Below, one piece after another: positions 10,354 through 42,600 of a stretch of DNA of 64,000 nt. This DNA is from an uncultured Candidatus Saccharibacteria bacterium (GTDB taxonomy: Bacteria; Patescibacteriota; Minisyncoccia; UBA6257): assembly GCA_964479005.1 (NCBI GenBank), contig CAYZJA010000001.1, positions 128,001-192,000 of the forward strand, given 5' to 3'. Position 1 is the stretch's first letter; every line of letters begins with the position of its first letter. The notes under the pieces were generated by a model. The model saw nothing but the letters and a program-made list of their open reading frames with translations, searched no databases and was not told the origin of the DNA. The translations under genes were made by a program, and so were the position numbers.

Positions 10354-10356
10354 AAC

Positions 10357-10390
10357 AAAGGGGAAGATTAATCTTCCCCTTTTATTTTTT
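10357..10390 (+). terminator. intrinsic terminator of GT2-GH operon
   Basis: aaAGGGGAAGAttaaTCTTCCCCTtttatttttt. Confidence 0.7.
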
Positions 10391-10486
10391 ATAAATATAA
10401 AATATTTTTATCATTTAATTTATAAAGCCAATGAAAGAGTTGGCAAATCATTATTAATATCATATTTTACTTAATTAAGAGTGGAC

Positions 10487-10515
10487 TTGACAAGAAAAAA
10501 AAAGTTTGCTATTGT
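10487..10515 (+). promoter_or_regulatory. promoter (TTGACA-17-TGcTATTGT), third copy of the conserved promoter core
   Basis: 'ggacTTGACAag' and 'gtttGCTAT' are shared with the 6868 and 29130 modules. Confidence 0.5.
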
Positions 10516-10521
10516 GTTTTC

Positions 10522-10678
10522 ACGGTGGGGCTTTTATTTTAGCCCCGCAGTGGGGCTTATGAATAATATTCAAAAAAGGGGATTTCATAATTTAAACAAA
10601 ATTTCTTTTCGATTTCTTGCGTTTAGTAAAATTGAAAAAGAAGTTTTTTGAGGTTGGCGTTTTTGCGCCAACTTTTTA
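10522..10678 (+). ncRNA. structured leader or sRNA with alternative hairpins and intrinsic terminator
   Basis: GGGGCU-uuuauuuu-AGCCCC (10527-10546) overlaps AGCCCC-gcagu-GGGGCU (10541-10557), giving two mutually exclusive pairings. Later GTTGGCG-uuuuug-CGCCAAC plus U5 (10653-10677). The next gene starts at 10736. Confidence 0.4.
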
Positions 10679-10735
10679 ATATTAAAATTAATAAAAAAAA
10701 TAAATAAAAAAATAAAAATTAATAAAATAAAAAAA

Positions 10736-11998: not shown

Positions 11999-12023
11999 AA
12001 AATAAATAAAAAAAATAAAAAAT

Positions 12024-13772: not shown

Positions 13773-13878
13773 GTTATAAATAATATCCGGCAATTACAAA
13801 AGAAAAAGTTGATAGGATTTAATGGCGAATTAACCGTTCATTTTAAATAAAAGATTAAAAAGTTAAATATATAAAAAA

Positions 13879-18201: not shown

Positions 18202-18373
18202 ATATCAGACAAGATTGAATCAAAAAACAGTGCTGATTTAGCATTTTTTGCGTCAATTTTTAGTAGTTGGACCTAAATATGAAATTTAGGTAGTAAAAAC
18301 TAATAGGTCGATCTTTGGTAAAAACCAAAGTAAAAAAATCAAAAATAACAAATTAAATTAATTAAAAATTAAA

Positions 18374-18889
18374 ATGAAAAAGATATTAATTGGTTTAACG
18401 ATCATTACATTGGCTGCAATGGTTGCTAGTCCTGCTATGGCTTACTACTGGCCAATGCCAATGGAATCCAGTGACGTAACAGTCAATAATGATAGTTACT
18501 CGAGGATTCGCAATAACGTAACAGTTGTTGCTAAAACCGGCGATAACACTGCTAATACTGGCTCGGCAAGTTTCGGTGGTTTGGGTAGTACAATTCAGAC
18601 TGGTAATGCTGTCGCTGAAGCGACAGTAGTAACTGTTGCCAACACAAATTACACCAGAATTAAGGCTCCTTGCACTAATTGCGACGGCGATGTCACTGTT
18701 AACAATGATGATAGTGACGCTTTTGTCAGGAATAGAGTTAGGGTTATTGCCGACACCGGCGATAACACTGCTAATACTGGCTCGGCATGTTTAGGTGGTG
18801 AGGGTAGTTTGATTGTAACAGGCAGTGCATGGGCTGAAGGAAATGTTGTTACTGTTACTAACACTAACATAACCAGAATTCGCAGATAG
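18374..18889 (+). CDS. secreted protein with two tandem ~50-aa repeats
   Basis: Signal peptide. Repeats 'NNVTVVAKTGDNTANTGSASFGGLGSTIQTGNAVAEATVVTVANTNYTRI' and 'NRVRVIADTGDNTANTGSACLGGEGSLIVTGSAWAEGNVVTVTNTNITRI'. Confidence 0.55.
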   Translation: MKKILIGLTIITLAAMVASPAMAYYWPMPMESSDVTVNNDSYSRIRNNVTVVAKTGDNTANTGSASFGGLGSTIQTGNAVAEATVVTVANTNYTRIKAPCTNCDGDVTVNNDDSDAFVRNRVRVIADTGDNTANTGSACLGGEGSLIVTGSAWAEGNVVTVTNTNITRIRR

Positions 18890-18994
18890 TAATTGATTGT
18901 TATGAACAGGAAGGGGGTTCTTTGTCCTCTTCCTTGCATAAGCCCTTAAAAGATTATTTTGAGGGCTTATGCAAGGGATATTAAAAAATCAAAT

Positions 18995-19549
18995 ATGAAA
19001 AATCAAATATCAAAAATTCCGGTTTTAGTTGCTTTTCTGACAATTATTCCGTTAGTTTGCGGGGCTTTTTCCTTTGAAGAACCTTTTGATGATTTTGAAG
19101 AATGGATTTCGGATCTTAGTGATGGAATGAGTAGTACTCATATAATAAATGAAGTTAAGGTTTTAACAAATACTGGCAATAATGTAATTAATGGCGAAAT
19201 AACAGAAGGTGAAGCAAAAAGCCGGATTTTTATTAAAAACGTTATTAATGGAAAAGAAATAGACCCAATTGAGATTGAATCTGATAAAAACGAAATTAAA
19301 GTGGAAAGCCAAATTAAAACAGAAAATGGCAAAGTTATTATTCAGAGAGAAATTCAAATTGATTCTGAAAAAAGCACTGAAAATTATGAGGTTGATTTGG
19401 AAAATTCAGAAACTGAGACAGAAAGTGAAGGAATATTGAAAGACGGTTTAGATTCCTTTCAAGAAGGATGGTTAGATTTTATCGAAGATTTAAGGTCTTT
19501 TTTTGACGATATCTTTAATATTTTTAAATTAAATGCAAGAATCAAATAG
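18995..19549 (+). CDS. secreted acidic protein carrying one copy of the same repeat
   Basis: Start chosen at the ATG at 18995, which gives the signal peptide 'MKNQISKIPVLVAFLTIIPLVCGAF'. 'INEVKVLTNTGNNVINGEITEGEAKSRIFIKN' matches the repeat. Confidence 0.45.
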   Translation: MKNQISKIPVLVAFLTIIPLVCGAFSFEEPFDDFEEWISDLSDGMSSTHIINEVKVLTNTGNNVINGEITEGEAKSRIFIKNVINGKEIDPIEIESDKNEIKVESQIKTENGKVIIQREIQIDSEKSTENYEVDLENSETETESEGILKDGLDSFQEGWLDFIEDLRSFFDDIFNIFKLNARIK

Positions 19550-22163
19550 ATTAAAAAACTTTATTTTAATTCCTTTGCTAATCATAAGTTTGGTAGGTTT
19601 TAATTTTTATCCCTTTTTGGTTTTTGCAGAAGGAGATGGAGTTGTCACCGAAGGAGTAGTAATTGAGAATAATGAAGACACGCAGATTGTTACTGGAGAT
19701 TCTAATACTGAAGTTAATCTTGAAAACACTGTAAATTCTAATCTTACCGAATTAAACGGGGATGATTCTTCAGACGGAGAATCAGAACCTCTTGAGAATT
19801 TAGAATGTGAGGAAATTGATGTTACTACTTCAAGCACTGATGTTGTTTTTAATATTGCCAATGATAATGAGGCAGAAGTAGAGAATAATATCGAGACTGA
19901 GGAAGAAACTGGAGATAATGAAATTGATCAAAGTGAAGGAGATGCCATCATTGACACCGGAGATATAAATTTAGTCGTTGGCGTAGTTAATACAGTCAAC
20001 ACTAATGTTACTGGTTCTGATTTTTCTCAGCTTTTGTTAAACGTTTTTGAAAATTTAGAAGAAGATATTGATTTATCTGACCAATTAATGGGAATTTCTT
20101 CTTTGGAAAATTGTTATTCACCAATGGAATGTTTTGATCTTAATATTGTTAATGATAACCAAGGAAGTATTGAAAATAATATTTTAGTTGATGCATCAAC
20201 TGGCGAAAATACTGCCCAGAGTATTGATGGAGACGCAATCATTAAGACCGGTAACGCTAATGTTGCAGTTAATGCTTTAAATATTCTCAATACCGATATT
20301 ATCGGCTCAAACTGGACTCAGCTTATTATCAATGTATTTGATAATTGGACTGGCGATTTAGTTTTTCCCGGAAAAGGAAAAATGCAAGGATTTTTAAATC
20401 AAAAACCGCGCTCCTGTGAAGGAGATTGTGGAGATACTAATATAGTTAATTCTAATGAAGGCGAGATTGAAAATAAAGTCCATGTTCAGGCTAATACTGG
20501 CGAAAATCAATCTAATGGAAATTCAAGTATTATCCGCACTGGCCAAGCTAATGCTGAAGTTAATCTTTTAAATATTGCCAATACTAATTTATATGATAAG
20601 AATTGGTTTTTTGTAGGAATTAATAATTTTGGCAACTGGAAAGGAAATGTATTTAGTTTGCCTCCTGGTTTGGAAATGTCAGGAGATTCTAATAGTGTTC
20701 AAATTTATAATCTTGAACTAGAAGATGTTAATAATCCAACAGAAGATTTTGATAATAACACCAGTGGTAATTCTTTGAATATAGTCAATGAAAATACCGG
20801 GATTATTAAAAATAATATTATAGTTAATCTTTCGACTGGCGAGAACTCAGCTATTTCTTCTAACGGTCAGACAACGATAGAGACCGGAGATGCCAATACC
20901 CTAACTAACATTGCCAATCTTTTAAATTCAAATATTGTCGGCAGTAATTGGCTTTTGGGAACTGTAAATATTTTAGGAGATTGGAATGGAGATTTGGCTT
21001 TTGGCCGTCCTGATAATTGGATTGGTGGGAGTGTTGCCTCTTCTCATAATCCGGTTTCTCCTGGAGAAACTATAACTTATACTTTGACATATATTAACAA
21101 TGGGGATGCTGATGCTACACAAGTAATGATTATTGATGATTACGATGAGGCGCATCTTTCTATTATAGATACAGGTGGTGGAATTATCATTGATAATCCT
21201 GGCGAGATTCAGTGGGACATTGGAACAATTGCAGTAGGCGGTTCCGGTTCAGTTTCTTATTCTGCTGTAATTGATCCAGAAGTACCTTATGGTACTACCT
21301 ATCTTACTAATCAGGCGACAATTGATAGTTTTGAAGAAGATTTTAATAATGAAGATAACATTGAAATTTTATCAATTGAAGTGTATAGACCTTTGCCAGT
21401 TGCTTCAGTTATGTTGGGTTTTTCTTCTCCCTCGTCTTCGCCAAAATTGGAAATTAGCAAAACTCACAATGTAGATGATTTCGTTTATTCAGGAAGCGAT
21501 GTTGATTTTAAGATAGTGCTATATAATGATAGCGATAGTTCTGCTTATGATGTTGTCGTTTATGATACTTTACGGAACGATGCATCTGAAGCGATCAGTA
21601 CTTCCCATTGGGATTTGGGAGAAGTTTTCCCTCACGAAGAAATAATTATTGACTATACGGCAGCCATAGGTTCTGAGTTTCCAGCCGGCTTTTATACTAA
21701 TATAGCTGAGGCTCTAGGTTTTGATAGCCAGGGAAATCCAGTTAGTTCTCCTGAGGCCTCTAGCACAATTGAGGTTAGGGCGGCAGAAGTTCCTCCTGAT
21801 GAAACAGAGGAAGTGGAGGAAATTTCTCTTGAGGAGATAGAAAAGGAATTAAAAGAAATGAAAGACAAGATAAGAAAAATAAGAGAAGAGATAGAAAGAC
21901 TTTCTCATCCGTCTCCAGTCGAAGAATTTACAAGTTCTCTTCCAAAACAATTAATATCAGAGGTTTTGGCTGCTGAAGAACCTTTTGTTCCCAAAGAAAA
22001 AATTAATTTGCCTGAAAGAGGTTTGGCTCCGTTGCTTTTGGCTAGCTTAAGAGAGATAGGGGGAACGGATTGGATGATGATTTTGGCCATTTTTTGCCTT
22101 ATTGGGTTAATTATAATTGGAATTAGAGAGTGGGAATTAATTCGAAAAAAGAAAAAGAGATAA
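19533..22163 (+). CDS. large surface protein: 4 copies of the ~50-aa repeat + DUF11/CARDB-like domains + C-terminal TM anchor
   Basis: Four 'IENN(I/V)xVxAxTGxNxAxSxxGxAxIxTGxAxxxVNxLNIxNTxxxGSNW' units. 'PGETITYTLTYINNGDADATQVMIIDDYD' is DUF11-like. Coiled-coil 'EEIEKELKEMKDKIRKIREEIERL'. Terminal helix 'WMMILAIFCLIGLIIIGI'. Confidence 0.55.
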   Translation: MQESNRLKNFILIPLLIISLVGFNFYPFLVFAEGDGVVTEGVVIENNEDTQIVTGDSNTEVNLENTVNSNLTELNGDDSSDGESEPLENLECEEIDVTTSSTDVVFNIANDNEAEVENNIETEEETGDNEIDQSEGDAIIDTGDINLVVGVVNTVNTNVTGSDFSQLLLNVFENLEEDIDLSDQLMGISSLENCYSPMECFDLNIVNDNQGSIENNILVDASTGENTAQSIDGDAIIKTGNANVAVNALNILNTDIIGSNWTQLIINVFDNWTGDLVFPGKGKMQGFLNQKPRSCEGDCGDTNIVNSNEGEIENKVHVQANTGENQSNGNSSIIRTGQANAEVNLLNIANTNLYDKNWFFVGINNFGNWKGNVFSLPPGLEMSGDSNSVQIYNLELEDVNNPTEDFDNNTSGNSLNIVNENTGIIKNNIIVNLSTGENSAISSNGQTTIETGDANTLTNIANLLNSNIVGSNWLLGTVNILGDWNGDLAFGRPDNWIGGSVASSHNPVSPGETITYTLTYINNGDADATQVMIIDDYDEAHLSIIDTGGGIIIDNPGEIQWDIGTIAVGGSGSVSYSAVIDPEVPYGTTYLTNQATIDSFEEDFNNEDNIEILSIEVYRPLPVASVMLGFSSPSSSPKLEISKTHNVDDFVYSGSDVDFKIVLYNDSDSSAYDVVVYDTLRNDASEAISTSHWDLGEVFPHEEIIIDYTAAIGSEFPAGFYTNIAEALGFDSQGNPVSSPEASSTIEVRAAEVPPDETEEVEEISLEEIEKELKEMKDKIRKIREEIERLSHPSPVEEFTSSLPKQLISEVLAAEEPFVPKEKINLPERGLAPLLLASLREIGGTDWMMILAIFCLIGLIIIGIREWELIRKKKKR

Positions 22164-22181
22164 AAGAATTGAATTAGAAAT

Positions 22182-22220
22182 AAAACAGGACTGATAACAA
22201 TATTAGCCCTGTTTTGTTTT
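22182..22220 (-). repeat. 32-nt conserved hairpin/terminator-like element, copy A (inverted, diverged)
   Basis: The reverse complement reads gggctaatattgttatcagtcctgtttt. On the + strand it forms AAAACAGG-N18-CCTGTTTT followed by a T-run. Confidence 0.55.
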
Positions 22221-22329
22221 ACGATAATTGACTATTGACTCTTGGCCTATAATCTGTTATCATTTTAGAGCAATTAAAGAAGATTATTTTATAGCATTTT
22301 GAAAATTTTATAAAAAGAGGTGAAATATA

Positions 22330-22578
22330 GTGGATAAGAAAGAAAAGATAGATGTATTGGTTTTATGTTGTATGATGATAGTTTTTGTTACTTTGTCGAA
22401 ATTGACGTATAATTTTTGCATGTCTAAAGGAGTAGAATATATATCAAAATATATCGCTGCTTCTTTAACACCTTTAGAATCCATATTAGCTTTAGTTTGC
22501 TGGATTATTTTTTCTTGTCTTATGTTTCTTCTGACGCTTTACTTGTTTTGTCTTTGGAAAGATGATTTTTGCGAATGA
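22330..22578 (+). CDS. small 2-TM Cys-rich membrane protein
   Basis: GTG start with SD AGAGGTG and two hydrophobic helices. First gene of the small-ORF cluster. Confidence 0.35.
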   Translation: MDKKEKIDVLVLCCMMIVFVTLSKLTYNFCMSKGVEYISKYIAASLTPLESILALVCWIIFSCLMFLLTLYLFCLWKDDFCE

Positions 22579-22606
22579 TGAAAATTATATTAAGGAGGTA
22601 ATTAAT

Positions 22607-22849
22607 ATGTCAAGGGAATTAACAAATCTCGAGATAAGAGCATTGAATTTCAAAGTAGGAGAAAAAGTCAAGGAGTTTTTAGTGTGCGCGGTATGCAAAG
22701 GCAATCCCGGTATAGAATATGGGAATATTGACAATGTCAAATTTTGCGGTGATAAAGATTTTGCTAAAGAAAAAAAGAAGAAATTAAAAAAGAAATTTTC
22801 TAAAGATAATGTAAGCATTTTAGAAATTCAAGTTAGAAAAATAGAATAA
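22607..22849 (+). CDS. small Cys-containing protein with Lys-rich tail
   Basis: SD AAGGAGGTAATTA with an 8-nt spacer. 'CAVCKGNPGIEYGNIDNVKFCGDKDF' is a possible metal-binding knuckle. Confidence 0.4.
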   Translation: MSRELTNLEIRALNFKVGEKVKEFLVCAVCKGNPGIEYGNIDNVKFCGDKDFAKEKKKKLKKKFSKDNVSILEIQVRKIE

Positions 22850-22882
22850 TAAAATTAATTAATAAAAAAGGAGGTAATTATA

Positions 22883-23083
22883 ATGATACATATTTTAGAC
22901 ACTGAAGAAACACCTAATATTGGAAACCAAGTGTTTGCAAACTGCGGAGAGAAATTAGATTTTCGTCCTATATGCGCAGATATTTATGGCCGAAAAACTT
23001 GTCCCGAGTGTTTGAAAAAACATGATTTATTATCAAAATCGAAAACACCATCAATGTACATGTTTATACTAGAAGAAAAGTAA
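22883..23083 (+). CDS. small 4-Cys zinc-ribbon-like protein
   Basis: Identical SD (AAGGAGGTAATTA). 'CGEKLDFRPICADIYGRKTCPEC' has CxnC…CxxC spacing. Confidence 0.4.
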   Translation: MIHILDTEETPNIGNQVFANCGEKLDFRPICADIYGRKTCPECLKKHDLLSKSKTPSMYMFILEEK

Positions 23084-23191
23084 ATTTAAATTGGTGTGAG
23101 AGCCCTCTTAAAGGTACGTAAAACTATCTTAAGGGGGTTTTTATTTTGATATAGCTAAGTTGCTAAAGTTAATTTATTGTAATGATTTATT

Positions 23192-23229
23192 TAGAGCTGA
23201 TATATTGTTATCAGTCCTGTTTTGTTTTA
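23192..23229 (+). repeat. 32-nt conserved element, copy B
   Basis: tagagctgatatattgttatcagtcctgtttt is 32/32 identical to copy C. CTGATA/TATCAG palindrome followed by a T-rich run. Confidence 0.6.
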
Positions 23230-23253
23230 TAATTTGTATTAAGTTTATTAAAT

Positions 23254-24606
23254 ATGTCTTATACGGTTGACACATTATTAATTATATCTTATTTCGTAAT
23301 AATAATTCTTGTAGGTTTATTTGCAGCGAGAAAACAAACTAAAGAAGGTTTTCTTATTTCTAATAGAAAGCTTTCTTCATTTCCATTGATATCTACGATC
23401 GTAGCTTCGCTTATTGGAGGAAATGCTATTGTTGTTTTTACAACAGCTATTTTCCTATATGGAATTTCTGCTTTTTGGGGTTTTATAGGGCTTGCCTGTG
23501 GTTGTTTATGCCTTATTTTTGTTACAAAAAAGGTAAAATCAATAGCTGATGAAAAGAAGTTCTATACTCTTAGTGATTTCTTTTATGAAAAATATGGTAA
23601 AAGCGTTGGTTTATTAATAGCTTTTACTATTACATTAACCTTTTTTATTCTCTTACTTATTCAGATAATCGCTGGCAGCATTCTACTAAGTAAAATAATC
23701 GGTTTAAGCTATGTATTATCTGTTTTAATTGTAACCACAGTTGTTTTCCTTTATCTACTCGCAGCAGGCTTTAAAGCGGTTGTTAGAACAGATATTTTTC
23801 AATGTTTTGCTATTTTGATACCGCTTTTAATAATTGCTATTTTTTTATCCACTGGGAAAGGTATTAGTATTTCAGAGTTTAATCCATTTAGAAGTGGCTT
23901 TATGTCCATATCATTTTTTCTATTTGGGTTAATTACTGTGATAATTGGTGCGGATATGTGGCAACGTATTTACGCAGGGGAAAATTTCAAGACAATTAAA
24001 AAATCTTTGATTATTTCAGCTATTACTATTCCAATTATTGGTCTTGGAGTATCTATGATTGGTTTTGCAGCTAAATCAAATTTTCCAAATATTCTATCTG
24101 AAGAAGCGCTTATTTATGGTATCTCATATTTATTACCTGCTGGATTGTCTGGTTTAGCACTTGTTGTTTTATTTGCAGCAATTATGTCTACCATAGATAC
24201 GATAACATTTGTTCTGGCTACTAATTTTTCCAAAGATTTTATTTCTAGATTAAAAAACGAAGAAACTAGTAAAAAAGACCTTGTGTCTTTAACTCGTTTA
24301 GGAATATTTTTATTTATTGCCCTCGCTTTAGTTATAGCTTTATTTTATTCAAATATAATAAATGTAGCTTTATCATTAGCTAGTATGACTTTTATCTTGG
24401 CCCCAACGATAATTGGCTCCTTGTATATTAAATTAAAAAGGAGGGCAATATTATTAAGTATTTTGTCAGGATTATTCTATACCTTTTTGATGGTATTATT
24501 AGGACTTATAAAACCAGAAACCATTACCGTATCTTTGTTTATTTCTCTGGGATCTCTTTTTATAGGTCAAAAAATTTTTAAATATAAAGAGGTTAAATCT
24601 GATTAA
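23254..24606 (+). CDS. sodium:solute symporter-family (SSS-like) transporter
   Basis: About 12-13 TM helices. The N-terminal 'GFLISNRKLSSFPLISTIVASLIGG' resembles the SSS 'FLAGR…' signature region. Confidence 0.5.
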   Translation: MSYTVDTLLIISYFVIIILVGLFAARKQTKEGFLISNRKLSSFPLISTIVASLIGGNAIVVFTTAIFLYGISAFWGFIGLACGCLCLIFVTKKVKSIADEKKFYTLSDFFYEKYGKSVGLLIAFTITLTFFILLLIQIIAGSILLSKIIGLSYVLSVLIVTTVVFLYLLAAGFKAVVRTDIFQCFAILIPLLIIAIFLSTGKGISISEFNPFRSGFMSISFFLFGLITVIIGADMWQRIYAGENFKTIKKSLIISAITIPIIGLGVSMIGFAAKSNFPNILSEEALIYGISYLLPAGLSGLALVVLFAAIMSTIDTITFVLATNFSKDFISRLKNEETSKKDLVSLTRLGIFLFIALALVIALFYSNIINVALSLASMTFILAPTIIGSLYIKLKRRAILLSILSGLFYTFLMVLLGLIKPETITVSLFISLGSLFIGQKIFKYKEVKSD

Positions 24607-24609
24607 AAA

Positions 24610-24641
24610 TAGAGCTGATATATTGTTATCAGTCCTGTTTT
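24610..24641 (+). repeat. 32-nt conserved element, copy C
   Basis: Identical to copy B over 32 nt, directly after the transporter stop. Confidence 0.6.
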
Positions 24642-24677
24642 AATATAATAATAGCCAGAGATTTCCAATTCTATTAG

Positions 24678-24726
24678 GTTCTTGACTTCCTTAATAGATT
24701 GGCTATAATTGGATATAGCTAATATA
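24678..24726 (+). promoter_or_regulatory. fic promoter (TTGACT-16-TATAAT) embedded in a 10-bp inverted repeat
   Basis: ATTGGCTATA (24687-24696) and TATAGCCAAT (24717-24726) flank the -10 element and the likely transcription start. Confidence 0.45.
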
Positions 24727-24738
24727 GCCAATAATCAT

Positions 24739-25800
24739 ATGGCAAGAAATAAACAATTTGATCAGAGAATAGAAAATATTCCTACAGAAATTTGGTCAAA
24801 GCTTATACAAATTGATGAATTAAAGGGGCAATGGATTGCCGGCGCTCGGTTGAGCCCACAAGTTTTAAACCACCTTAAGCGGTCTGTTTTGATTACTTCT
24901 ACTGGTGCCTCAACTCGTATTGAGGGAGCTCGGCTTTCTGACGAAGATGTTGAGAAATTAATGCGTGGTATTGATATTCAGAAGTTTACTGACCGTGATA
25001 AGCAGGAAGTAAAGGGATATTTTGAATTACTAGAAAATATTTTTGATTCTTGGAGATCGATTAAGCTTTCAGAAAGCGCTATCAAGCATTTTCACAAAGA
25101 GCTTTTGAAGTATGTAAAAAAGGATGAACTCCACAGAGGTGATTATAAGAAAACCGAGAATAAAGTTGAGATGATTGATGCAGCTGGTAAATCCATCGGA
25201 ACTCTTTTTGACACTACACCGGTATATCTTACCCCGAAAGAAATGCAGGAATTAGTAGAGTGGACCCGAGAATCTTTGGCTGAAAAAAAATCTCATCCAC
25301 TTTTGATTGTTGGTAATTTTCTTGTTGAGTTTTTACAGATTCATCCATTCCAAGATGGCAATGGCCGGCTTAGCCGTGTTCTTACAAATCTTCTTTTATT
25401 GAAAGAGGGATATTTATATATGCCCTATATTTCTCATGAGAAGCTGGTTGAAGACAATAAGCCGGATTACTATATGGCCTTACGCAGAAGTCAAAAGACT
25501 TTTAAGACAGATCACGAAGACATCACTTCGTGGTTGGATTTCTTTTTGACTATTTTATTGAAGCAGTCAAAGATGGCCGTTGAGCTACTCTCAAAAGAGA
25601 ACATTGAAAAACTTCTTTCAATGAAGCAACTTGCTGTTTGGGAGTATTTGCAAAAGGCAAAAGAAACTACTACCGGCGAGATTATCAGAGGAACCAAGAT
25701 TACACGGCCTACTGTAAAACAGGCTCTTAACAAATTATTGCGTCTCAAAAAAATTGAACGCATTGGGCTCGGTAGAAGCACAAGATATAGAAAATTATGA
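24739..25800 (+). CDS. Fic/Doc family protein (putative AMPylase) with C-terminal winged-helix
   Basis: Canonical Fic motif 'HPFQDGNGRLSRVLTNLLL'. The start is moved to 24739 because the track's 24709 start lies inside the promoter -10 region. Confidence 0.85.
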   Translation: MARNKQFDQRIENIPTEIWSKLIQIDELKGQWIAGARLSPQVLNHLKRSVLITSTGASTRIEGARLSDEDVEKLMRGIDIQKFTDRDKQEVKGYFELLENIFDSWRSIKLSESAIKHFHKELLKYVKKDELHRGDYKKTENKVEMIDAAGKSIGTLFDTTPVYLTPKEMQELVEWTRESLAEKKSHPLLIVGNFLVEFLQIHPFQDGNGRLSRVLTNLLLLKEGYLYMPYISHEKLVEDNKPDYYMALRRSQKTFKTDHEDITSWLDFFLTILLKQSKMAVELLSKENIEKLLSMKQLAVWEYLQKAKETTTGEIIRGTKITRPTVKQALNKLLRLKKIERIGLGRSTRYRKL

Positions 25801-25830: not shown

Positions 25831-26847
25831 ATGAGTTTATCAATTGGAATTGTCGGTTTACCTAATGTGGGAAAATCCACTCTTTTTAAACTTTTAACAA
25901 AGCAGGAAGTTAATATTGCTAATTATCCATTTACTACCATTGATCCTAATGTGGCTGTTGTTTCAGTGGCTGATGAGAGATTAGAAAAAATAGCTGAGAT
26001 AAGCAAACCGGAAAAAGTAATTCCTGCCGCAATTGAATTTTTTGATATTGCAGGGTTAGTAAAAGGAGCTAATAAGGGAGAAGGGTTAGGAAATCAATTT
26101 TTAGCCCAGATTCGCGAAACCAATGCTATAGTACAAGTAGTTCGATGTTTTTCTGAAGAAACAGTAGCTCATATAGATGGCAGTATAGATCCTTTAAGAG
26201 ATATTAAAGTAGTTAATACCGAGTTAATCTTAAAAGATTTAGAAACTACAGAAAAGAGAATTAGTAAAATAGAAGGGGAAGCTCATGCTGGAAATAAAGA
26301 CATTGTTAAAGAATTAGAAATATTAAATCAGATAAAAAATTTACTAACAGAAGACAATCTTTTGATAAATTTTTTGAACGAAGAGTTATTAAATAATCCA
26401 GCAGTGAAAGATTTAAATTTTTTAACGGCAAAAAAACAAATCTACTTGTTTAATGGCAGAGACGAGGATACTCCAAAAGAAGTTATTAATTTTATTCAGC
26501 AATTAAAAAGTGAATATATTATTACTGGTTTAGAAACAAATCCTGATTTATTAGAGCTTATTAAAAAAGCCTATCAGGTTTTGGGGCTTATTAGCTTTTT
26601 TACTATTGTAGGTGAAAAAGAGGCGCGCGCTTGGCCTGTAAAAAAAGGTATTAAAGCTCAGGAAGCGGCAGGGATGATTCACAGTGATTTTGCCGATAAA
26701 TTTATTAAAGCTGAAGTTATTGATTGGAAGAAATTATTAGAAGCAGGCAAGTGGAGTGTTGCCCGCCAAAAAGGATGGATTCAATTAGAAGGAAAAGAGT
26801 ATGAGGTACAGGATGGAGATGTTATAATATTTAAACACGGGGGATGA
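25831..26847 (+). CDS. ychF: ribosome-binding ATPase YchF
   Basis: 'IGIVGLPNVGKSTLFKLLT…NYPFTTIDPNV…FFDIAGLVKGANKGEGLGNQFL' and a C-terminal TGS-like region. Confidence 0.9.
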   Translation: MSLSIGIVGLPNVGKSTLFKLLTKQEVNIANYPFTTIDPNVAVVSVADERLEKIAEISKPEKVIPAAIEFFDIAGLVKGANKGEGLGNQFLAQIRETNAIVQVVRCFSEETVAHIDGSIDPLRDIKVVNTELILKDLETTEKRISKIEGEAHAGNKDIVKELEILNQIKNLLTEDNLLINFLNEELLNNPAVKDLNFLTAKKQIYLFNGRDEDTPKEVINFIQQLKSEYIITGLETNPDLLELIKKAYQVLGLISFFTIVGEKEARAWPVKKGIKAQEAAGMIHSDFADKFIKAEVIDWKKLLEAGKWSVARQKGWIQLEGKEYEVQDGDVIIFKHGG

Positions 26848-27104
26848 AAAAGAAATTTATATTTTATGGTCGGGTCCAAGGTATAGGGTTTCGTTTTAGA
26901 GCCGAAATGTTAGCTAAAAAATTTAATATATTTGGTTGGGTGGAGAATAATGATGATGGAGGTGTTACTTTAATAGCAGAAGGGGCAGAAGAAAACATAG
27001 AAAGTTTAATAAATAATTTAAAAGATTATTTTCAAGATAATATTGAAAATATAAAAGAAAGTATAGAAAAAGGCGAGGGGTTAATTGATTTCAAAATAAA
27101 ATGA
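26844..27104 (+). CDS. acyP: acylphosphatase
   Basis: 'FYGRVQGIGFRFRAEMLAKKFNIFGWVENNDDGGVTLIAEG'. Confidence 0.85.
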   Translation: MKKKFIFYGRVQGIGFRFRAEMLAKKFNIFGWVENNDDGGVTLIAEGAEENIESLINNLKDYFQDNIENIKESIEKGEGLIDFKIK

Positions 27105-27451
27105 GTTTTATTAAGCATAAAGAGAGTAAAGAAAGCTTATTTGTTTGGACTAAGCATTCGCAAGCAAAGATGCGTCAATATATGCTTTCTGAAAGTAGAG
27201 TAAAGCGGGTGATAAGAAATCCTAAAAGAGTGGAAGAGGGTATTGCTCCAAAGACTTTAGCTTCAATGCAAAAGGCGGGTTCTAAAAAGCATCCTTATGA
27301 GATTTGGGTAATGTATCAACTTGTTAGTGAGCGAGGCCGTAGAATAAAAGTTATTAGCGCGTGGAAATATCCTGGTACTACTCATCCCGGAGATCCAATT
27401 CCTATTCCACCAGATATTTTTGAGGAAATTATTAAAGACCTTGGAACATAA
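27101..27451 (+). CDS. DUF4258-like small protein
   Basis: 'VWTKHSQAKMRQYMLSESRVKRVIRNPKRVEEG…IWVMYQL…IKVISAWK' fits the DUF4258 pattern. Overlaps both neighbouring genes (ATGA junctions). Confidence 0.35.
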   Translation: MSFIKHKESKESLFVWTKHSQAKMRQYMLSESRVKRVIRNPKRVEEGIAPKTLASMQKAGSKKHPYEIWVMYQLVSERGRRIKVISAWKYPGTTHPGDPIPIPPDIFEEIIKDLGT

Positions 27452-27453
27452 AT

Positions 27454-28164
27454 ATGGAGAAAGAAAAGTTTGAAGATTTAATAAGCCAGTCCTTAAAAAA
27501 ACTTCCTTATCGGTTCTTAAATAAATTAAAAAATATCGCTATTATAGCGCAAGATAAGCCAAGTGAATTCCAGAGACAACAATTAGGTTATTCTTCCGGC
27601 GGCTCTATTTTGGGCTTGTATGAAGGAGTTCCTCAAATTAAAAGGGGATACTATTATAGAGCAGCGCCAGACAAAATAACTTTATTTCAAAAAAACATTG
27701 AAAGAGCGGCAGGTAATAATGAAGAAAGAATTAAGGAAATTGTGCAAGGAACAGTTTGGCACGAAATAGCTCATCATTTTGGAATGAATGAAGAGGAGAT
27801 TCAAAAGCGAGTTCAAGACAATAAACCATTTTCTCGAAAAAATATGATTACTTTTGACCAATTTGAACAATTAGATTTACGCGTAGCTAAAATTTTAAAA
27901 GCGGAAAAAATAGAAGAAGCAGACGAGCTTCTTATTTTGCATATTGACTTGGGTGCAGAAAAAAGGCAATTAGTTGCCGGTATTGCTAAGGATTATTCTT
28001 TAGAGGAATTAGAGGGCAAAAAAATTATTATTGTGGCTAATTTAGAGCCAAAAAAAATAAAGGGTTATATAAGTCAGGGCATGCTTTTAGCAGTTGATTC
28101 TCCGCAAGGGCCCGTTTTATTAGTTCCAGAAGGTGAAGTATCACCTGGTAGTAAAGTAAGATAA
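27454..28164 (+). CDS. fusion of zincin-like HExxH domain and Trbp111/CsaA-type tRNA-binding domain
   Basis: N-terminal 'GTVWHEIAHHFGMNEEEI' is a zincin-like HExxHH motif. C-terminal 'DLRVAKILKAEKIEEADELLILHIDLGAEKRQLVAGIAKDYSLEELEGKKIIIVANLEPKKIKGYISQGMLLAV' matches the tRNA_bind (EMAP/Myf) fold. Confidence 0.6.
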   Translation: MEKEKFEDLISQSLKKLPYRFLNKLKNIAIIAQDKPSEFQRQQLGYSSGGSILGLYEGVPQIKRGYYYRAAPDKITLFQKNIERAAGNNEERIKEIVQGTVWHEIAHHFGMNEEEIQKRVQDNKPFSRKNMITFDQFEQLDLRVAKILKAEKIEEADELLILHIDLGAEKRQLVAGIAKDYSLEELEGKKIIIVANLEPKKIKGYISQGMLLAVDSPQGPVLLVPEGEVSPGSKVR

Positions 28165-28168
28165 AAAT

Positions 28169-29017
28169 ATGAAAAAACTATATGTTATCAACAGTTTAGG
28201 TATGAAGGAGCCTTTTTCATGGAGAAAGATTTGTAATGGCGCTGAACGAGTTGGCGCTTCAAAAGCATTAGCAAAAGAAATTGCCACTATTATTGAAAGA
28301 GAAGCATATCCTGGAATAACCACAAAAGAGATTTTTCAACGAGTGGAACAAATTTTATCAAAAGAGTGTCCTCGCGGCAGAATTCGTTTTAGATTAAAAG
28401 AAGCAATGAGACGTTTAGGCCCCAGTGGTTTTCCATTTGAAAAATATGTTGGAGGGATTTTAATGCAATTAGGTTTTTCCATTGAACTTAATCGATATGT
28501 TAAAGGGCAATGTGTTCGTCACGAAATTGATTTTTTAGCCAAAGAGGAAAAATATTTTTTAATTGGAGAATGTAAATATCATAGTTTGCCAGGGGGAAGG
28601 GTGGATTTAAAAGTTGGTTTGATTCATTGTGCCCGTTTTTTAGATTTGAAATCAGGTGATTTTTTTGGAAAGATTAAATCAGAAAAACTAAAAATACGAC
28701 CGATTATTGTCACCAATACTAAATTTACAAGCAAAATAATTAAATATGCTGAGTGTGCTGGCATAGATTTATTAGGATGGAAATATCCAGAGCTGAGAGG
28801 ATTAGAGTATGTGATTGAATCAGAAAGATTTTACCCAATTACTATTCTTCCGTCTTTAACTAATAATTTATTAGAAATATTTTATCAGCAAAAATTAATG
28901 TTGGTTCAGGATTTATTAAAGTTAGATGTAATAAAATTTTCAAAAAAGACAAGAATTCCAGAAAAAAAGATATCTGCCATTAAAAGGGAGGCAGAGATAT
29001 TGTTATTAGAAGAGTAG
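28169..29017 (+). CDS. ATP-cone domain fused to Mrr-type PD-(D/E)xK restriction-endonuclease-like domain
   Basis: N-terminal 'FSWRKICNGAERVGASKALAKEIATIIEREAYPGITTKEIFQRVEQIL' is ATP-cone-like. 'FEKYVGGILMQLGFSIELNRYVKGQCVRHEIDFLAKEEKYFLIGECKYH' resembles the Mrr catalytic core (D…E.K). Confidence 0.5.
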   Translation: MKKLYVINSLGMKEPFSWRKICNGAERVGASKALAKEIATIIEREAYPGITTKEIFQRVEQILSKECPRGRIRFRLKEAMRRLGPSGFPFEKYVGGILMQLGFSIELNRYVKGQCVRHEIDFLAKEEKYFLIGECKYHSLPGGRVDLKVGLIHCARFLDLKSGDFFGKIKSEKLKIRPIIVTNTKFTSKIIKYAECAGIDLLGWKYPELRGLEYVIESERFYPITILPSLTNNLLEIFYQQKLMLVQDLLKLDVIKFSKKTRIPEKKISAIKREAEILLLEE

Positions 29018-29018
29018 T

Positions 29019-29080
29019 AAAAAAATGCTACTGCCCTTTGAAACTAAATAGCAAGCTATTCAATCTCTCTAGACAGTAGC
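29019..29080 (-). ncRNA. candidate structured small RNA, copy 2
   Basis: The minus-strand transcript is caAUGCUACUGuc…AAUAG-CUUG-CUAUU…ggGCAGUAGCAU followed by U7. The outer stem is 9-11 bp. Confidence 0.45.
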
Positions 29081-29081
29081 A

Positions 29082-29130
29082 TTGGTAGTATAGCAAACAT
29101 TTAAGTCTTGTCAAGTCCCATTGTGGATAA
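29082..29130 (-). promoter_or_regulatory. conserved promoter module, copy 2 (DnaA-box-like + -35 + extended -10)
   Basis: The reverse complement reads aagTTATCCACAatgggacTTGACAagacttaaatgttTGcTATACTac. Confidence 0.6.
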
Positions 29131-29139
29131 CTTAAAATT

Positions 29140-31548
29140 ATGATAATTATGAAGAAAAAATATATTTTGTGGTTTAAGGAAATAAATATTAAAGATGTTC
29201 CTATTGTTGGCGGGAAAAATGCTTCATTAGGGGAGATGTATAGGAATTTATCAAAAAAAGGAGTAAATATCCCAAATGGTTTTGCTATTTCTGCTCAGTC
29301 ATATTTCTATTTTTTGAAAAAAGGAAAAATAAAAAAAAGAATTCAAGAGATTTTGTCTGAGTTTAATCCGAAGAGCATTAAGAGTCTTCAAGAAACAGGA
29401 AAGAAAATAAGAAAATTAATTTTAGATATACCATTACCAAAAGATTTGGAAAAAGATATTATTAAAAATTATCAAAAGCTTTGCAAGATGTATAAGCAAG
29501 ATGATTTAGATGTGGCAGTTCGTTCTTCTGCCACAGCCGAGGATCTTCCCTCAGCCAGTTTTGCAGGTCAACATGAAACCTATCTTAATGTAAGAGGAGA
29601 AGAAGAATTACTGAAAGCGGTTAAAAACAGTTATGCGTCTTTATTTACAGATAGGGCAATAATGTATCGTGAGGAAAAAGGATTTAAACACATGGATATT
29701 GGGCTTTCCACTGGAGTCCAAAAAATGGTGCGTTCTGATTTAGCATCTTCTGGAGTTATGTTTACTTTAGATACAGAGACAGGATTTGCTAATGTAGTTT
29801 TAATTAATTCTATTTTTGGAATAGGAGAGATGATAGTAAAAGGGTTGATTACTCCTGACGAATTTTATGTTTTTAAACCAACACTTAAACAAGGATATAA
29901 AGCGATTATTAGAAAAGATTTAGGAAGAAAGACAAAAAAATATATTTATAACAAAAAAGCTGGGCTCAAGGAAATTGCGGTTTCTAAAAAAGATCAATTA
30001 AAATTTTCTCTTTCTGATGACGAAATTCTTACTTTGGCAAAATGGGGAATTATTATTGAAGAGCACTACTCAAAAATTCAAAAAAAATGGATGCCTCAGG
30101 ATATAGAATGGGCAAAAGATGGAAAAACAGGCGAATTATTTATTGTTCAATCAAGGCCAGAAACTGTTCATTCAATTGAAACAAATATTTATAAGGAATA
30201 TAAAATAAAAACCGCTAAAAGACCAATTTTAAATGGCATTGCTATTGGTAATAAAATAGGCGCAGGTAAGATTCATATTATAAAAAACGCTTCAAAACTT
30301 TCAGAATTTAAAAAGGGAGAGATTTTAGTCACCAAGATGACTGATCCTGACTGGACTTCAGTTTTCCCTATGGCTTCAGCTATTATTACTGATGAAGGTG
30401 GTAAAACCTGCCATAGCGCAATAATTTCCAGAGAATTAGGCGTGCCTTGTATTGTAGGGACAAGAAACGCGACAAAAATTCTTAAAAATGGACAGGAAGT
30501 AACTGTAGATTGTACTCAAGGCCTTGATGGAAAGATCTTTAATGGAAAAGTTCCTTTTAAAATTAAAGAATATAATTTTAAAAAATTTCCAAAAATAAAG
30601 ACCAAGATCATGATTAATATCGGCGCTCCTGAAATAGCTTTTGCAACATCATTTCTTCCTAATGATGGAGTAGGTTTAGCCAGAGAGGAATTTATTATTG
30701 CGGAGAAAATCAGGATTCATCCGTTGGCGTTATATCACTACAAAAAACTTAAGTCAAAAGAGGTTATTAAAAAGATTGACGAGATGACTGTGGAACATAA
30801 GGATAAGAAAGAATATTTTATAAAAGAATTAGCAGAAGGAATTGCTCAGATAGCTGCTGCTTTTTATCCAAAAGAAGTAATTGTAAGATTTTCTGATTTT
30901 AAAACCAATGAATATCGCAATCTGATTGGAGGAGAACTTTTTGAACAGGAAGATGAAGCCAATCCAATGCTTGGATTCAGGGGTGCTTCAAGGTATTATG
31001 ATGAAAAATTTAAACCAGCTTTTTTGATGGAGTGTGAAGCGATAAAGCGAACTCGCGATGTTTTTGGTTTAAAGAATATTAAAGTAATGATTCCTTTTTG
31101 TCGGACAGTCGATGAGGGAAAAAAAGTGATTGAATTAATGAAAAAGGCAGGTTTACAAAGAGGGAAAGATGGTTTGAAAATTTATGTAATGTGCGAAATT
31201 CCGTCAAATGTAATTTTAGTAGATCGTTTCAGTGAAATTTTTGATTTTTACTCAATTGGGAGCAACGATCTAACACAACTCATATTAGGAGTTGATCGAG
31301 ATAATGCACATTTAACACAAGTTTTTAATGAAAATGATGATGCAGTAAAAAGAGCTATAGAGGAGTTTATTAAAAAAGTTCATCAATATAAAAAGAAAGT
31401 GAGTATTTGTGGTGAAGCTCCAGCGAGCGTTGAAGGATTTGTAGAATTTCTTATTAAGTGTGGGATAGATTCTATTTCAATAAACCCTGGCTCTGTTATA
31501 AAGACGATGCTTTTAGTAAGTAAAATAGAGAAAAAATTACAAAAATGA
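29140..31548 (+). CDS. ppsA: phosphoenolpyruvate synthase (pyruvate, water dikinase)
   Basis: 'VGGKNASLGEM' ATP-grasp start, the PEP-utilizer His site 'GGKTCHSAIISRELGVPCIVG', and a C-terminal PEP/pyruvate-binding TIM domain. About 800 aa. Confidence 0.9.
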   Translation: MIIMKKKYILWFKEINIKDVPIVGGKNASLGEMYRNLSKKGVNIPNGFAISAQSYFYFLKKGKIKKRIQEILSEFNPKSIKSLQETGKKIRKLILDIPLPKDLEKDIIKNYQKLCKMYKQDDLDVAVRSSATAEDLPSASFAGQHETYLNVRGEEELLKAVKNSYASLFTDRAIMYREEKGFKHMDIGLSTGVQKMVRSDLASSGVMFTLDTETGFANVVLINSIFGIGEMIVKGLITPDEFYVFKPTLKQGYKAIIRKDLGRKTKKYIYNKKAGLKEIAVSKKDQLKFSLSDDEILTLAKWGIIIEEHYSKIQKKWMPQDIEWAKDGKTGELFIVQSRPETVHSIETNIYKEYKIKTAKRPILNGIAIGNKIGAGKIHIIKNASKLSEFKKGEILVTKMTDPDWTSVFPMASAIITDEGGKTCHSAIISRELGVPCIVGTRNATKILKNGQEVTVDCTQGLDGKIFNGKVPFKIKEYNFKKFPKIKTKIMINIGAPEIAFATSFLPNDGVGLAREEFIIAEKIRIHPLALYHYKKLKSKEVIKKIDEMTVEHKDKKEYFIKELAEGIAQIAAAFYPKEVIVRFSDFKTNEYRNLIGGELFEQEDEANPMLGFRGASRYYDEKFKPAFLMECEAIKRTRDVFGLKNIKVMIPFCRTVDEGKKVIELMKKAGLQRGKDGLKIYVMCEIPSNVILVDRFSEIFDFYSIGSNDLTQLILGVDRDNAHLTQVFNENDDAVKRAIEEFIKKVHQYKKKVSICGEAPASVEGFVEFLIKCGIDSISINPGSVIKTMLLVSKIEKKLQK

Positions 31549-39531: not shown

Positions 39532-39620
39532 CTATTAAATCGTCAATTAATTGATGATTTTTTTATTTTAAAAATAAATTGTGGTATAATTATTTAATAA
39601 TATTAAAATGTTATAAAAAG

Positions 39621-42600
39621 ATGAGTTTTAATAGATCTATAAAAATTTCTGTTGTATTTTTAGTTATTTTCGCTTGGGTATTAAATAGCTTTCCTTTGAA
39701 AGCGGCTGACGGTTCTGGTACAAATGTTGTTGATCCGATTACTGCTACGGCCAGCGCTACAGATAAAACTTTTGATTTTACTTTTACTGCGGCAGAAACA
39801 ATGGATTCTGGCGAGATTTCAATAGCAGTGCCTAGTGGCTGGTCTGCTCCACAAGATATATCAACAACAGTTGGTTATACAACAGCTGCTTCTACTGGTA
39901 TGACAGCTGATGTTTTAACCGCTTTAGATACTCATACTGGTTGGAGCACAGGCAGTAATATAGCCATTTCTGCTGATGGCGCTGATTATCAGGAGGGTTC
40001 ATATTCTATTTCAGCTGATATTGCTGTAGGAGCTCAGGCTGGTGAAAAGTGGTATTTTAACGAACCTGGAGCAAAAGATTTTGGCAGCGCCACAAAGATG
40101 ATTTTTTGGATTAAATCAAGTGTTAATACTAATGCTGGTGATTTGCAATTTGAGGTTGATGATTCTGCTGATTTAGCTTCGCCAGAAGAGACGGTTAATA
40201 TTCCAGCTTTAACAGTTGATACCTGGACTGAAGTAACAATTAGTTTAGGAGCAGCTCGCAGTTCAGTGCTTTCTTATGGAATCAAATACACTGTTGATAT
40301 TGGAGCAGCTACTGTGAAAATTGATGATATAAGGGCAATGTTTGATGATGCTGATGCTACTACTAGTTGGACTCAATCTGGTAGTGGAAAGATTACTATT
40401 AGCTCAGATGCAGCAATAAAAAAACAGGGTACAGCTTCAATCAAAGCTGCCTTTCTCCCTCAGGCTAAACCCTTGGATAAATATTTTTGGTCAAGCGCTA
40501 CACCGAGAAGTTTTGGTTCTTACGCTAGAGTTTCTTTTTGGATTTATTCGAGTAAGGCAACAGAAGCTGATGATTTGAAATGGGAGAATGATAATAGTAC
40601 AGGTCTAGCCTCGCCCGAAGATACTATTGGTCTTCCAGCCCTAGCTGCTACTACCTGGACCTATCTCCAGGTTACTCTTGGGGCAACCAGGACTTCGGTT
40701 CTCTCCCACGGTATTCACCAAGTAATTGACTTAGGAGCTCATAATGAATATGTTGACGCTATGGCTGTGCAGGTTAATGCAGCTGAATCAACTACTAATT
40801 GGACAAAGACCTCTCCAATGGTTTTAAGCACTGATACAACTGTTTATCATGAAAATGCTGCGTCTTTGAAAAATATTGTAGCAGTTACTGCTGGAACTGG
40901 AGATGAATGGTGGTATAATTTAGGAGCTGCAGATGATTGGTCAAGTTATACTAATGTTGGTTTTTGGATTCGTTCAACAGTTAATACTTCTGGTGGAAAT
41001 TTACAATTTGAATATGATGATAATACTGATTTAGCTTCTCCAATTGCTTCTCTTGATATTGGCGCTTTAACTGCTAATACCTGGTCTTATCAAAATTTAA
41101 CTTTAACTGATACTCGAACAACTATTAATAGTTATGGTTTTAAATATACTACTGATGTAGGAGCAGTTATTATTAATGCTGATGATATTCTTTTGGGTCC
41201 TGGAGAACCAAGTTTTTCTGGAAGCGGACCGTGGGATATTAATGTAAGAATTTTAGCTTTAGCTAATACAGAAACAATTACTGTGACTTATGGTGATAAT
41301 GCAGGTTCTGGAGGTGGAGTAACTGTTACTTCTGCAACTGGTGACGCTACTTTTACAACCAAATCCAGAATTTCTGATTCAGGAACTCTTACTAATATTG
41401 CCTCTTCTCCAGTTGTAACAGTCGGCACAGCACTGGTTGTTGATAATGTTCAGTTAAATGGTCAGGCTGCAATTGATTTAATTGAAAACACAACTAAATC
41501 TGTATCAGCTACAGCTAATATTTCTCATCCTACAGATTGTAATCTTATTACCAATGTAACATCTAAAATTTATCGTTCAGGTGTCACTAATAATAAAGAT
41601 TGCACATCTGATAATAATGATTGTTATAGTGTTGCTTCTTGCAGTAAAACTTCTTGCGTTGAAACAGAGGCTGTTTATACTTGTACGATTAATATGCAGT
41701 TTCACGCTGATCCGACTGATGAAGATGCAGAATATTGGAGAGCTTGGATTGAAGCAACTGATGGATCTTTGACAAATTCTAATTATAGTCCAGTTGACGC
41801 GCCTGATGTTAATACTTTACGGGCTCTGAATACTACTGCGACAATTAACTATGGAACATTAGATCCCGGACAAAATAGTACCTCGACAAATCAACAAATC
41901 ACAGTGACAAATACTGGCAATGATGCTATTGATATTAGACTTTATGGTATTGATATGACTTGGAACGGAAATACTATTGACACAGCTAATCAAGAATACA
42001 GTTTATCTCCATTTACTTATGGTTCTGGAAATTATCTTAAGGAAGCACCAAGCTATGATGATGTGGATGCTAATTTGCCAAAACCTACAGAATCGCCATC
42101 AAATTCGTCAGATATTTTTTATTGGGGACTAGGTATTCCTTCACCAATGCCTTCAGGTGGACCTTATCAGGGAACAAATACATTTGAAGCGATAAATGAT
42201 CAGGGGGTACTTGGTTGGTATAATCCATCTTGGGGATATAGAGTAAAAGTTACGGTTTTAGCATCAGAAGTTGACGCTGATTTAACTGATTATCCCGTAT
42301 ATGTAGATTTATCTAATTTACCAGCAGGATTTCATACTAATGTTAACCAGACAGATGCAAGGGATATTCGTGTTACGAAATATAATGGTACATTAGAAGT
42401 TCCAAGGGAAGTTGTTTTTTATGATTCAGCAACTGATACTGGGGAGTTACATTTTAAAGGAAATGTAGATGATGGTACAAATACTGATTTCTATATTTAT
42501 TATGGAAATGGTGGGGCAAGTGATTATGCGGTAGATGCAGAATTTGGGGCAGAAAATGTTTGGAATGCGAATGCCAAAATGGTTCAGCATATGAAAGATG

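Follow-up and report, generated by a model that had tools for sequence, protein, structure and literature searches.

The 64-kb window analysed here, positions 128,001 to 192,000 of contig CAYZJA010000001.1, has nearly every gene between 4.8 and 62 kb on the + strand and contains two short elements of opposite orientation that are the subject of this study. Copy 1 (c1, + strand) follows rplJ, rplL, a tRNA-Val gene (6419-6493) and an open reading frame (ORF) for a 66-amino-acid (aa) membrane protein (6611-6811) with its terminator, and copy 2 (c2, - strand) lies between a nuclease gene (28169-29017) and ppsA. Together they form the longest inverted repeat of the window found by repeat search, with arms of 116 nt that are 78% complementary and 22,033 nt apart (Table 1). 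Alignment of the arms showed that their likeness is concentrated in the promoter part, the RNA body being far less alike. One 47-nt block, GTTATCCACAATGGGACTTGACAAGAYTTAAATGTTTGCTATACTAC, is present twice and no more, at positions 6871-6917 on the + strand and 29131-29085 on the - strand; 46 of its 47 positions are identical between the arms, and none of 100 dinucleotide-preserving shuffles matched it. The longest exact stretches common to both arms are 28 and 20 nt. By profile search and pattern scan, c1 and c2 are the only full copies in the 64 kb. A preliminary description of this DNA had proposed two small inverted RNA units, near-identical in the promoter and not in the RNA body, with c2 pointing leftward at the 3' end of the nuclease gene and standing back-to-back with ppsA; the repeat, promoter and hairpin-T7 scans, the arm alignment and the coordinates bear out each of these points.

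Both arms are built in the same order, namely a TTATCCACA box, 7 nt, a TTGACA -35 element, a 16-nt spacer ending in TGc, a TATACT -10 element, 4 nt, a hairpin and a run of seven T residues. Both promoters match the sigma-70 consensus at 11 of 12 positions in a promoter scan and also carry the TG of an extended -10 element. The box equals TTATNCACA, the DnaA-box consensus. The hairpin is 58 nt long in both copies, with equal arms of 27 nt and a CUUG loop closed by a G-C pair. Folding gave a minimum free energy of -23.5 kcal/mol (z = -4.8) for the c1 RNA, compared with only -5.9 for the opposite strand, and of -30.3 kcal/mol (z = -7.5) for the c2 RNA, compared with -15.2. The folding is strand-specific because many of the hairpin pairs are G-U, and this points to structure at the RNA level rather than the DNA level.

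Relatives were gathered using rplL, the nuclease and ppsA as anchors and represent approximately 10 related lineages of the Candidate Phyla Radiation (CPR), referred to below by L numbers; the source labels of the closest homologues were Paceibacteria/Pacebacteria or Minisyncoccia, with one metagenome-assembled genome labelled Saccharibacteria. From these lineages 19 distinct hairpins were obtained, each of them a single hairpin with equal arms (16/16, 19/19, 26/26 or 27/27). The GCUUGC cap is invariant, and the base reads UGY...RCAU (for the most part AUGC...GCAU), with 7-8 U residues after it. The 58-nt sequence of c2 was identical in L019, L020, L025 and, its first base excepted, L004, and the L001 c2 hairpin differed from that of the window by one compensatory pair. 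When covariation was assessed over the outer nine and inner seven pairs, 94.9% of cells were paired; shuffles gave 81%, and sliding the partner by 1-3 columns gave 24-66%. Of the 16 pairs, 11 varied on both sides, and none of 500 shuffles attained the observed value. The MAFFT alignment of full modules misplaces hairpin gaps and was used for promoter columns and the nhmmer profile only.

Only three tRNAs passed an Rfam gathering-threshold search of the window, and three Rfam E-value searches (both copies and L037) returned no match of at least half the gathering score other than a weak one to CRISPR-DR63 (24.3 of 37 bits), which lies on the minus strand of the reduced unit at 7034-7095 and on neither copy. 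Matches below threshold were no better than chance. A literature search found no relevant description of CPR small RNAs (sRNAs) of this kind. Scans with exact cores (20- and 22-mers) gave one match among 185,579 species genomes (L001) and three in Joint Genome Institute (JGI) metagenomes (L002-L004); viral contigs gave no match, and a phage origin of the unit was rejected on that ground. The window itself matches JGI contig Ga0309839_1000001 (551,616 bp) or a near-identical genome. In L037 and L026 the extra + strand units have the terminator of the previous gene on one side and a separate promoter-like site and Shine-Dalgarno sequence of the next gene on the other, and since downstream genes thus have their own promoters after the U-tract, the units are self-contained. 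It is probable, judging from these sequence comparisons, that c1 and c2 belong to a small, uncatalogued family of stand-alone RNA genes that is lineage-restricted and occurs in Paceibacteria-like CPR bacteria, with predicted transcripts. The class itself, multi-copy sRNA genes ending in an intrinsic terminator, is familiar; what sets this family apart is a promoter element resembling a DnaA box and the presence of a copy embedded in antisense orientation. Two other candidate assignments were rejected. The hairpin often starts with AUG and could then encode a short peptide (MLSFGSIC, MLLSREIE, MPLF), but the corresponding codon is UUG in L004 and L034 and GUG in L037 and L032, L029 lacks an in-hairpin stop codon, and peptide conservation is no greater than the stem sequence dictates. 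A TIGR-Tas or CRISPR-like array was set aside on account of the units being solitary with their own promoters and of Pfam and the gene table giving no Nop-domain or Cas gene nearby.

Table 1. Positions of the c1 and c2 units, their parts and neighbouring features in the 64-kb window
Feature	Position	Strand	Basis
c1, whole arm (box, promoter, hairpin RNA, U-tract)	6869-6984	+	Inverted repeat, alignment, nhmmer (E=2.8e-23)
TTATCCACA box of c1, 7 nt upstream of -35	6872-6880	+	Exact match to DnaA-box consensus
c1 promoter, TTGACA, 16-nt spacer, TGc TATACT	6888-6915	+	11/12 + TG
c1 RNA body (predicted): hairpin 6920-6977, G-CUUG-C cap, seven U 6977-6983	6920-6983	+	Folding, covariation
c2, whole arm, antisense to surrounding + strand genes	29018-29133	-	Inverted repeat, alignment, shuffles, nhmmer (E=8e-25)
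TTATCCACA box of c2	29122-29130	-	Exact match
c2 promoter, TTGACA, 16-nt spacer, TGc TATACT	29087-29114	-	11/12 + TG
c2 RNA body (predicted): hairpin 29082 down to 29025, seven U 29025 down to 29019	29019-29082	-	Folding
Intrinsic terminator of small membrane ORF 6611-6811, directly upstream of c1	6825-6858	+	Read from sequence
Reduced unit: TTGACT-17-TATAGT promoter, 6-bp hairpin ATGCTC..GAGCAT, T7	7034-7095	+	Promoter and pattern scans
Variable part: 237-aa ORF, GT2, GH113, Big_7, DUF642/SpaA giants, DUF11 adhesin, small ORFs, SSF, Fic	7213-25800	+	Pfam
Conserved core: YchF, acylphosphatase, 116-aa ORF, Zincin/tRNA_bind, ATP-cone/AF1548-like nuclease	25831-29017	+	Pfam, synteny
ppsA, start 29140 or 29149 (two ATG candidates)	29140-31548	+	Open reading frame

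In all lineages showing both anchors, c1 follows the small membrane ORF on the + strand and c2 follows the nuclease gene on the - strand. The same relative orientation was present in five other lineages with both copies, over spacings of 3.5 kb (L020, L025), 5 kb (L019), 8.4 kb (L026-28) and approximately 24.8 kb (L016/L039, one contig), the spacing in the window being 22 kb. A counterpart of the terminator ahead of c1 was found in L002, L003, L016, L019 and L026, the sequence there being different in L020, and c2 was kept down to 59% nuclease protein identity (L037). The genes for YchF, acylphosphatase, the small ORF, Zincin/tRNA_bind and the nuclease lie upstream of c2, between the copies, in every relative. 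The GT2/GH113/adhesin/small-ORF/SSF/Fic block is present in the window and L016/L039 and partly in L034, and absent or different in L019, L020, L025, L026 and L037. Four copies of the unit were found in L026, five in L037 and two each in L029 and L002, the extra + strand copies sitting in the variable part. Judged by gene order, c1 and c2 are positional orthologues, each kept at a fixed anchor point. What separates them is a conserved core, from YchF to the nuclease, with a variable insert next to c1, and this interval is no functional unit. The preliminary description had listed GT2, giant adhesin-like genes, small ORFs, Fic and the nuclease for this interval, which Pfam confirms, and had taken the pair to bracket a surface-protein-rich block as a unit. 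Synteny in relatives upholds the linkage of the copies at the same two sites but not the bracketing, as the same copies lie 3.5 to approximately 25 kb apart, with the block present or absent beside c1 and with extra copies between.

Several other small elements were observed close to these units. The reduced unit downstream of c1 (Table 1) is kept in L016 with one compensatory pair and is possibly a degenerate third copy, or else the operon's own promoter and leader with a 5' hairpin. Directly after it comes a leader of approximately 115 nt (7096-7213) that precedes the 237-aa/GT2/GH113 operon and shows 100% identity when the window is compared with L016, though c1, a short way upstream, differs markedly; this leader gave no Rfam match and may be a structured or protein-bound 5' untranslated region. 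A second, unrelated unit of promoter, hairpin and T5 (GTGGCCGCTTGAGTC...GACCAAGTGGCC) stands in tandem after a family unit at 5040-5130 of L037, and these genomes may contain several kinds of mini transcription units. In L019 an insertion of approximately 70 nt (CCCCACACCATAACG...TTTGGTATGGGG; 10905-10975) resembling a miniature inverted-repeat transposable element (MITE), with TTGAC duplicated at its flanks, separates the c1 box from the -35 element, and its end motif CCCCCACACCA is also present directly after the L004 unit (approximately 2420-2440) and in L022 (10543-10612).

The unit could instead be the promoter and 5' leader of downstream genes, with the hairpin and U-tract serving as an attenuator or 5'-end stabiliser and the short RNA a by-product. 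Nearly all + strand copies do have a co-directional gene 50-470 nt downstream (c1 of the window ahead of the 237-aa/GT2 operon, four copies in L037 and two in L026; L026_x2 is an exception), and stabilising stem-loops are known to sit at the 5' end, as does the hairpin of the unit. However, L026_x2 and every lineage's c2 point at convergent genes and have nothing to drive, hairpins of -20 to -30 kcal/mol followed by 7-8 U residues should terminate efficiently, and the sequence has no space for a second, anti-terminating fold. Between U-tract and gene in L037 and L026 there are moreover separate promoter-like sites (TTGACT-17-TGGTATAAT and similar), and a second promoter-hairpin unit intervenes in the window. 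A role as leader is therefore considered unlikely.

A purely DNA-level function, as a MITE-like or repetitive extragenic palindrome (REP)-like repeat, a site of recombination or a group of sites titrating DnaA, with no RNA gene, would fit the multiple copies within the variable region, the DnaA-box-like core and the occurrence of a different, truly MITE-like insertion in the same regions. Against this, the G-U pairs make the fold strand-specific, and both the conserved promoter geometry with its TG and the presence of the U-tract on one strand only speak for transcription. The unit ends without terminal inverted repeats or target duplications, and the numbers of exact-core matches (1, 3 and 0 in species genomes, JGI metagenomes and viral contigs, respectively) are not those of a proliferating element. 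The boxes are also at least approximately 1 kb apart and each tied to a promoter, unlike those of oriC or datA, and we regard this explanation as very unlikely compared with that of an RNA gene family.

Among 25 distinct promoters the -35, TG and -10 elements were near-invariant, and TTATCCACA was perfect in 15 and had a single mismatch in five, always at 6-7 nt from the -35 element. In the most distant relatives the flanks diverge and the conserved core is reduced to exactly TTATCCACA. This pattern indicates that the box, -35, TG and -10 are probably maintained by purifying selection. Identity of the 47-nt block within and between genomes was then compared. The lineage-specific states that copies of one genome have in common fall in the spacer and the box flanks. 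Alongside the 46/47 of the window, c1 and c2 of L026 agreed at 45/47 positions, both having CCCCA and ATAAAAAT, and c1 of L016 and c2 of L039 agreed at 39/47 (counted from the sequences), with AATTGG in common; in L020 the figure was 38/47 and the pattern of greater likeness within a genome was not seen. Between genomes, c1 orthologues were identical at 37-42 of 47 positions. The c1 block of the window matched c2 of other genomes at 44-46 positions and c1 of L016, L020 and L002 at 37-39. Window c1 has a c2-type spacer and a c2-type 'AC' after the -10 element, yet a c1-type RNA body, and its flanks are 96-100% identical to those of L016, the unit itself differing in spacer and hairpin length. 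Short-tract gene conversion of approximately 50 nt between copies is supported by these comparisons as the probable source of such states. The near-identity of the promoters would thus have two causes, purifying selection and conversion between the copies, an outcome in line with the preliminary description, which had put forward selection or gene conversion acting on the regulatory part. Conversion without crossover would leave the orientation of the interval unaltered.

The preliminary description had also suggested the 22-kb pair as a substrate for segment inversion, and as a working substrate it would act as a switch, or undergo recurrent rearrangement, that re-orients the surface-protein block. 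The pair is a true inverted repeat with 116-nt arms and exact stretches of 28 and 20 nt, and sequence appears to have been exchanged between the copies over evolutionary time. Exact homology of these lengths is at the lower limit for RecA-dependent exchange, which counts against inversion. The intervening genes keep the + orientation in every relative with both copies, and only the reference configuration was seen in the JGI reference contig and in six contigs of four other assemblies (L011, L013 and L014 over the c1 junction, L006, L007 and L008 over the c2 junction; 99.97-100% identity). GC skew is uniformly positive, its value inside the block (0.17-0.21) equalling that of the flanks without reversal, and no recombinase, invertase or integrase domain was found in Pfam scans of the ORFs between 4.8 and 29 kb, some of which have no hit of any kind. 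The surface block is, in addition, missing between the same two copies in several relatives. Collinear contigs and relatives and the unbroken GC skew thus make inversion of the segment, rare isomers apart, very improbable at the level of assembled sequence, and as judged from the relatives the inverted relative orientation of c1 and c2 is ancestral and fixed.

A hairpin RNA serving as cofactor or antidote of the adjoining ATP-cone/AF1548-like nuclease deserves hardly any credence, for although c2 lies right beside the stop codon of this gene in each lineage, as far as the 59% protein identity noted above, c1 and the extra copies adjoin no nuclease, c2 is convergent with the nuclease gene rather than co-transcribed, and no known family of such architecture was matched.

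The position of c2 bears on expression of ppsA and eno. The end of its U-tract is 1 nt away from the stop codon of the nuclease gene (29015-29017), and its box lies 9-18 nt from the candidate start codons of ppsA, leaving no room for a promoter of ppsA's own; the promoter scan found no + strand promoter-like site upstream of ppsA. The gap between c2 and the next gene is equally tight in L004 (PolX) and L019 (DUF6485), and amounts to approximately 50 nt to GDPD in L020 and L025. The + strand version of the c2 hairpin is without a U-tract, so that with neither a ppsA promoter nor a + strand terminator run, transcription of ppsA-eno is predicted to start in the upstream gene string and must then run through the c2 unit. 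A divergent ppsA promoter within the unit (TTGTCA on the other strand) was considered and rejected: the spacing is 18-20 nt, the -10 candidate in L004 abuts the ATG, and the scan finds none.

Further observations concern the repeats and insertions of the region. In the variable part a 26-nt inverted repeat (22178-22203 and 23202-23227; 96% complementary, 998 nt apart) consists of two similar terminator-type hairpins around a cassette of small Cys-rich ORFs, and A-rich low-complexity intergenic stretches (AAATAAAAAAATAAAAATTAATAAAA...) precede several surface-protein genes (10675-10765, 11966-12035 and 18319-18385). Internal direct repeats (12408-12942 and 16396-16927; 75-78% identical) link the 582-aa and 1440-aa DUF642/SpaA proteins. 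The DUF11/CLIPPER ORF at 19533-22163 encodes 876 aa in the window and 971 aa in Ga0309839_1000001 (L005), a gap of 285 nt that reflects tandem-repeat number (region approximately 19823-20013) in sequences otherwise 99.98% identical. Beyond ppsA, a repeat with a period of approximately 430 nt (40103-41087) is contained in a 1221-aa ORF (39579-43244) with no Pfam hit. In the relatives, intein or LAGLIDADG insertions are present in NifU, GlmS and a UvrD/AddB-like helicase (L029 5894-6715, L034 16062-19214, L022 18225-20474; gene tables).

Qrr1-5 with their LuxO and sigma-54 sites, RsmX/Y/Z with the GacA upstream sequence, and OmrA/OmrB are sets of paralogous sRNA genes, present in multiple copies and with a regulator site in common upstream. 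The present family resembles them in that a genome carries several short RNA genes, that every gene has a separate promoter and intrinsic terminator, and that an upstream box is more conserved than parts of the RNA; as in OmrA/OmrB, the ends are conserved and the middle varies. Unlike these RNAs, those of the present family are nearly all closed hairpin without an exposed seed, span 36 to 58 nt and are preceded by a DnaA-box consensus, and their expression is predicted. As with CopA/CopT and RNA I/RNA II, c2 would specify a short, strongly promoted hairpin RNA fully complementary to an opposite-strand transcript, in this case upstream of ppsA. In contrast to CopA/CopT, however, c2 is chromosomal and intercistronic rather than within a plasmid replication leader, its tetraloop of 4 nt is unsuited to kissing, and its paralogues c1 and x are antisense to nothing; a match of the units to Rfam CopA (E=1.4) was at chance level. 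The flanking of a surface-protein-rich segment by two inverted copies recalls hin, fim, shufflons and RecA inversions between rRNA or insertion sequence copies. Unlike hin, fim and shufflons, the present locus has no invertase gene in Pfam scans and a single observed orientation with undisturbed GC skew, its repeats are genes, and the flanked content varies. The perfect TTATNCACA 9-mer in fixed orientation at approximately -43 to -52, where activators or repressors typically bind, is like that of DnaA-box promoters such as dnaA, nrdAB and sda, the difference being that the product here is an sRNA rather than a protein and that DnaA binding is predicted. Finally, derived states shared within a genome and absent from orthologues, with a homogenised tract that spans the promoter, resemble the concerted evolution of rRNA operons and tuf genes and 'mobile promoters', although unlike rRNA operons and tuf the tract extends over only approximately 50 nt, and it is shared by inverted copies as much as 25 kb from each other.

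For the proposed RNA genes, transcription would be expected to start at the very base of the symmetric 36-58 nt hairpin and to terminate at the tract of 7-8 U residues, yielding a hairpin RNA of approximately 45-70 nt. The common box would place all copies under one regulator, most simply DnaA. At c2 the unit would act in cis on transcription that enters ppsA-eno from the nuclease gene, by way of promoter occupancy, convergent transcription and a perfectly complementary antisense RNA; cis action on ppsA read-through is suggested because the antisense placement of c2 is invariant and ppsA lacks its own promoter. We put forward the common regulator and the action of c2 on ppsA-eno with low confidence. 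The full scheme of an undescribed DnaA-box-controlled hairpin RNA family, in which the status of the replication initiator sets the firing of several identical promoters, c2 gates central carbon metabolism at ppsA-eno through convergent transcription and antisense pairing, and conversion keeps the copies uniform, is a speculative one and more probably wrong than right by a wide measure.

A number of points weigh against an RNA gene family under DnaA control. Transcription, termination and RNA abundance of the units are all predictions, and the covariation alignment was anchored on the hairpin base and loop, biasing it toward structure. Because of the hairpin, hardly any sequence stays single-stranded and free to base-pair, and comparison of c1 and c2 by RNAduplex with 51 translation-initiation regions of the window brought out no trans target, the best energies being no better than those of shuffled sRNAs. 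The 4-nt loop is a poor kissing partner, and an antisense mechanism would require strand opening. Assignment to DnaA derives from the 9-mer only, and binding is predicted; TTATCCACA-like sites are not enriched over the window (22 found, 19.8 expected), and five copies, including c2 of L037, are without a box. Relatives were sampled in the rplL-to-ppsA region only, such that copies elsewhere in those genomes would be missed.

For the surface-protein island, these data mean that no phase-variation mechanism is to be inferred. Almost no regulatory RNAs are known from CPR/Patescibacteria, and an uncatalogued, structurally well-supported small-RNA family would add one. Its pattern of conservation, with promoter and DnaA-box-like site more conserved than the RNA, is unusual, and it offers a clean small-scale case of inverted copies that have probably evolved in concert over distances of up to 25 kb. 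The wedging of c2 between stop and start codons leads to the specific prediction that it may gate ppsA-eno expression in a reduced genome.

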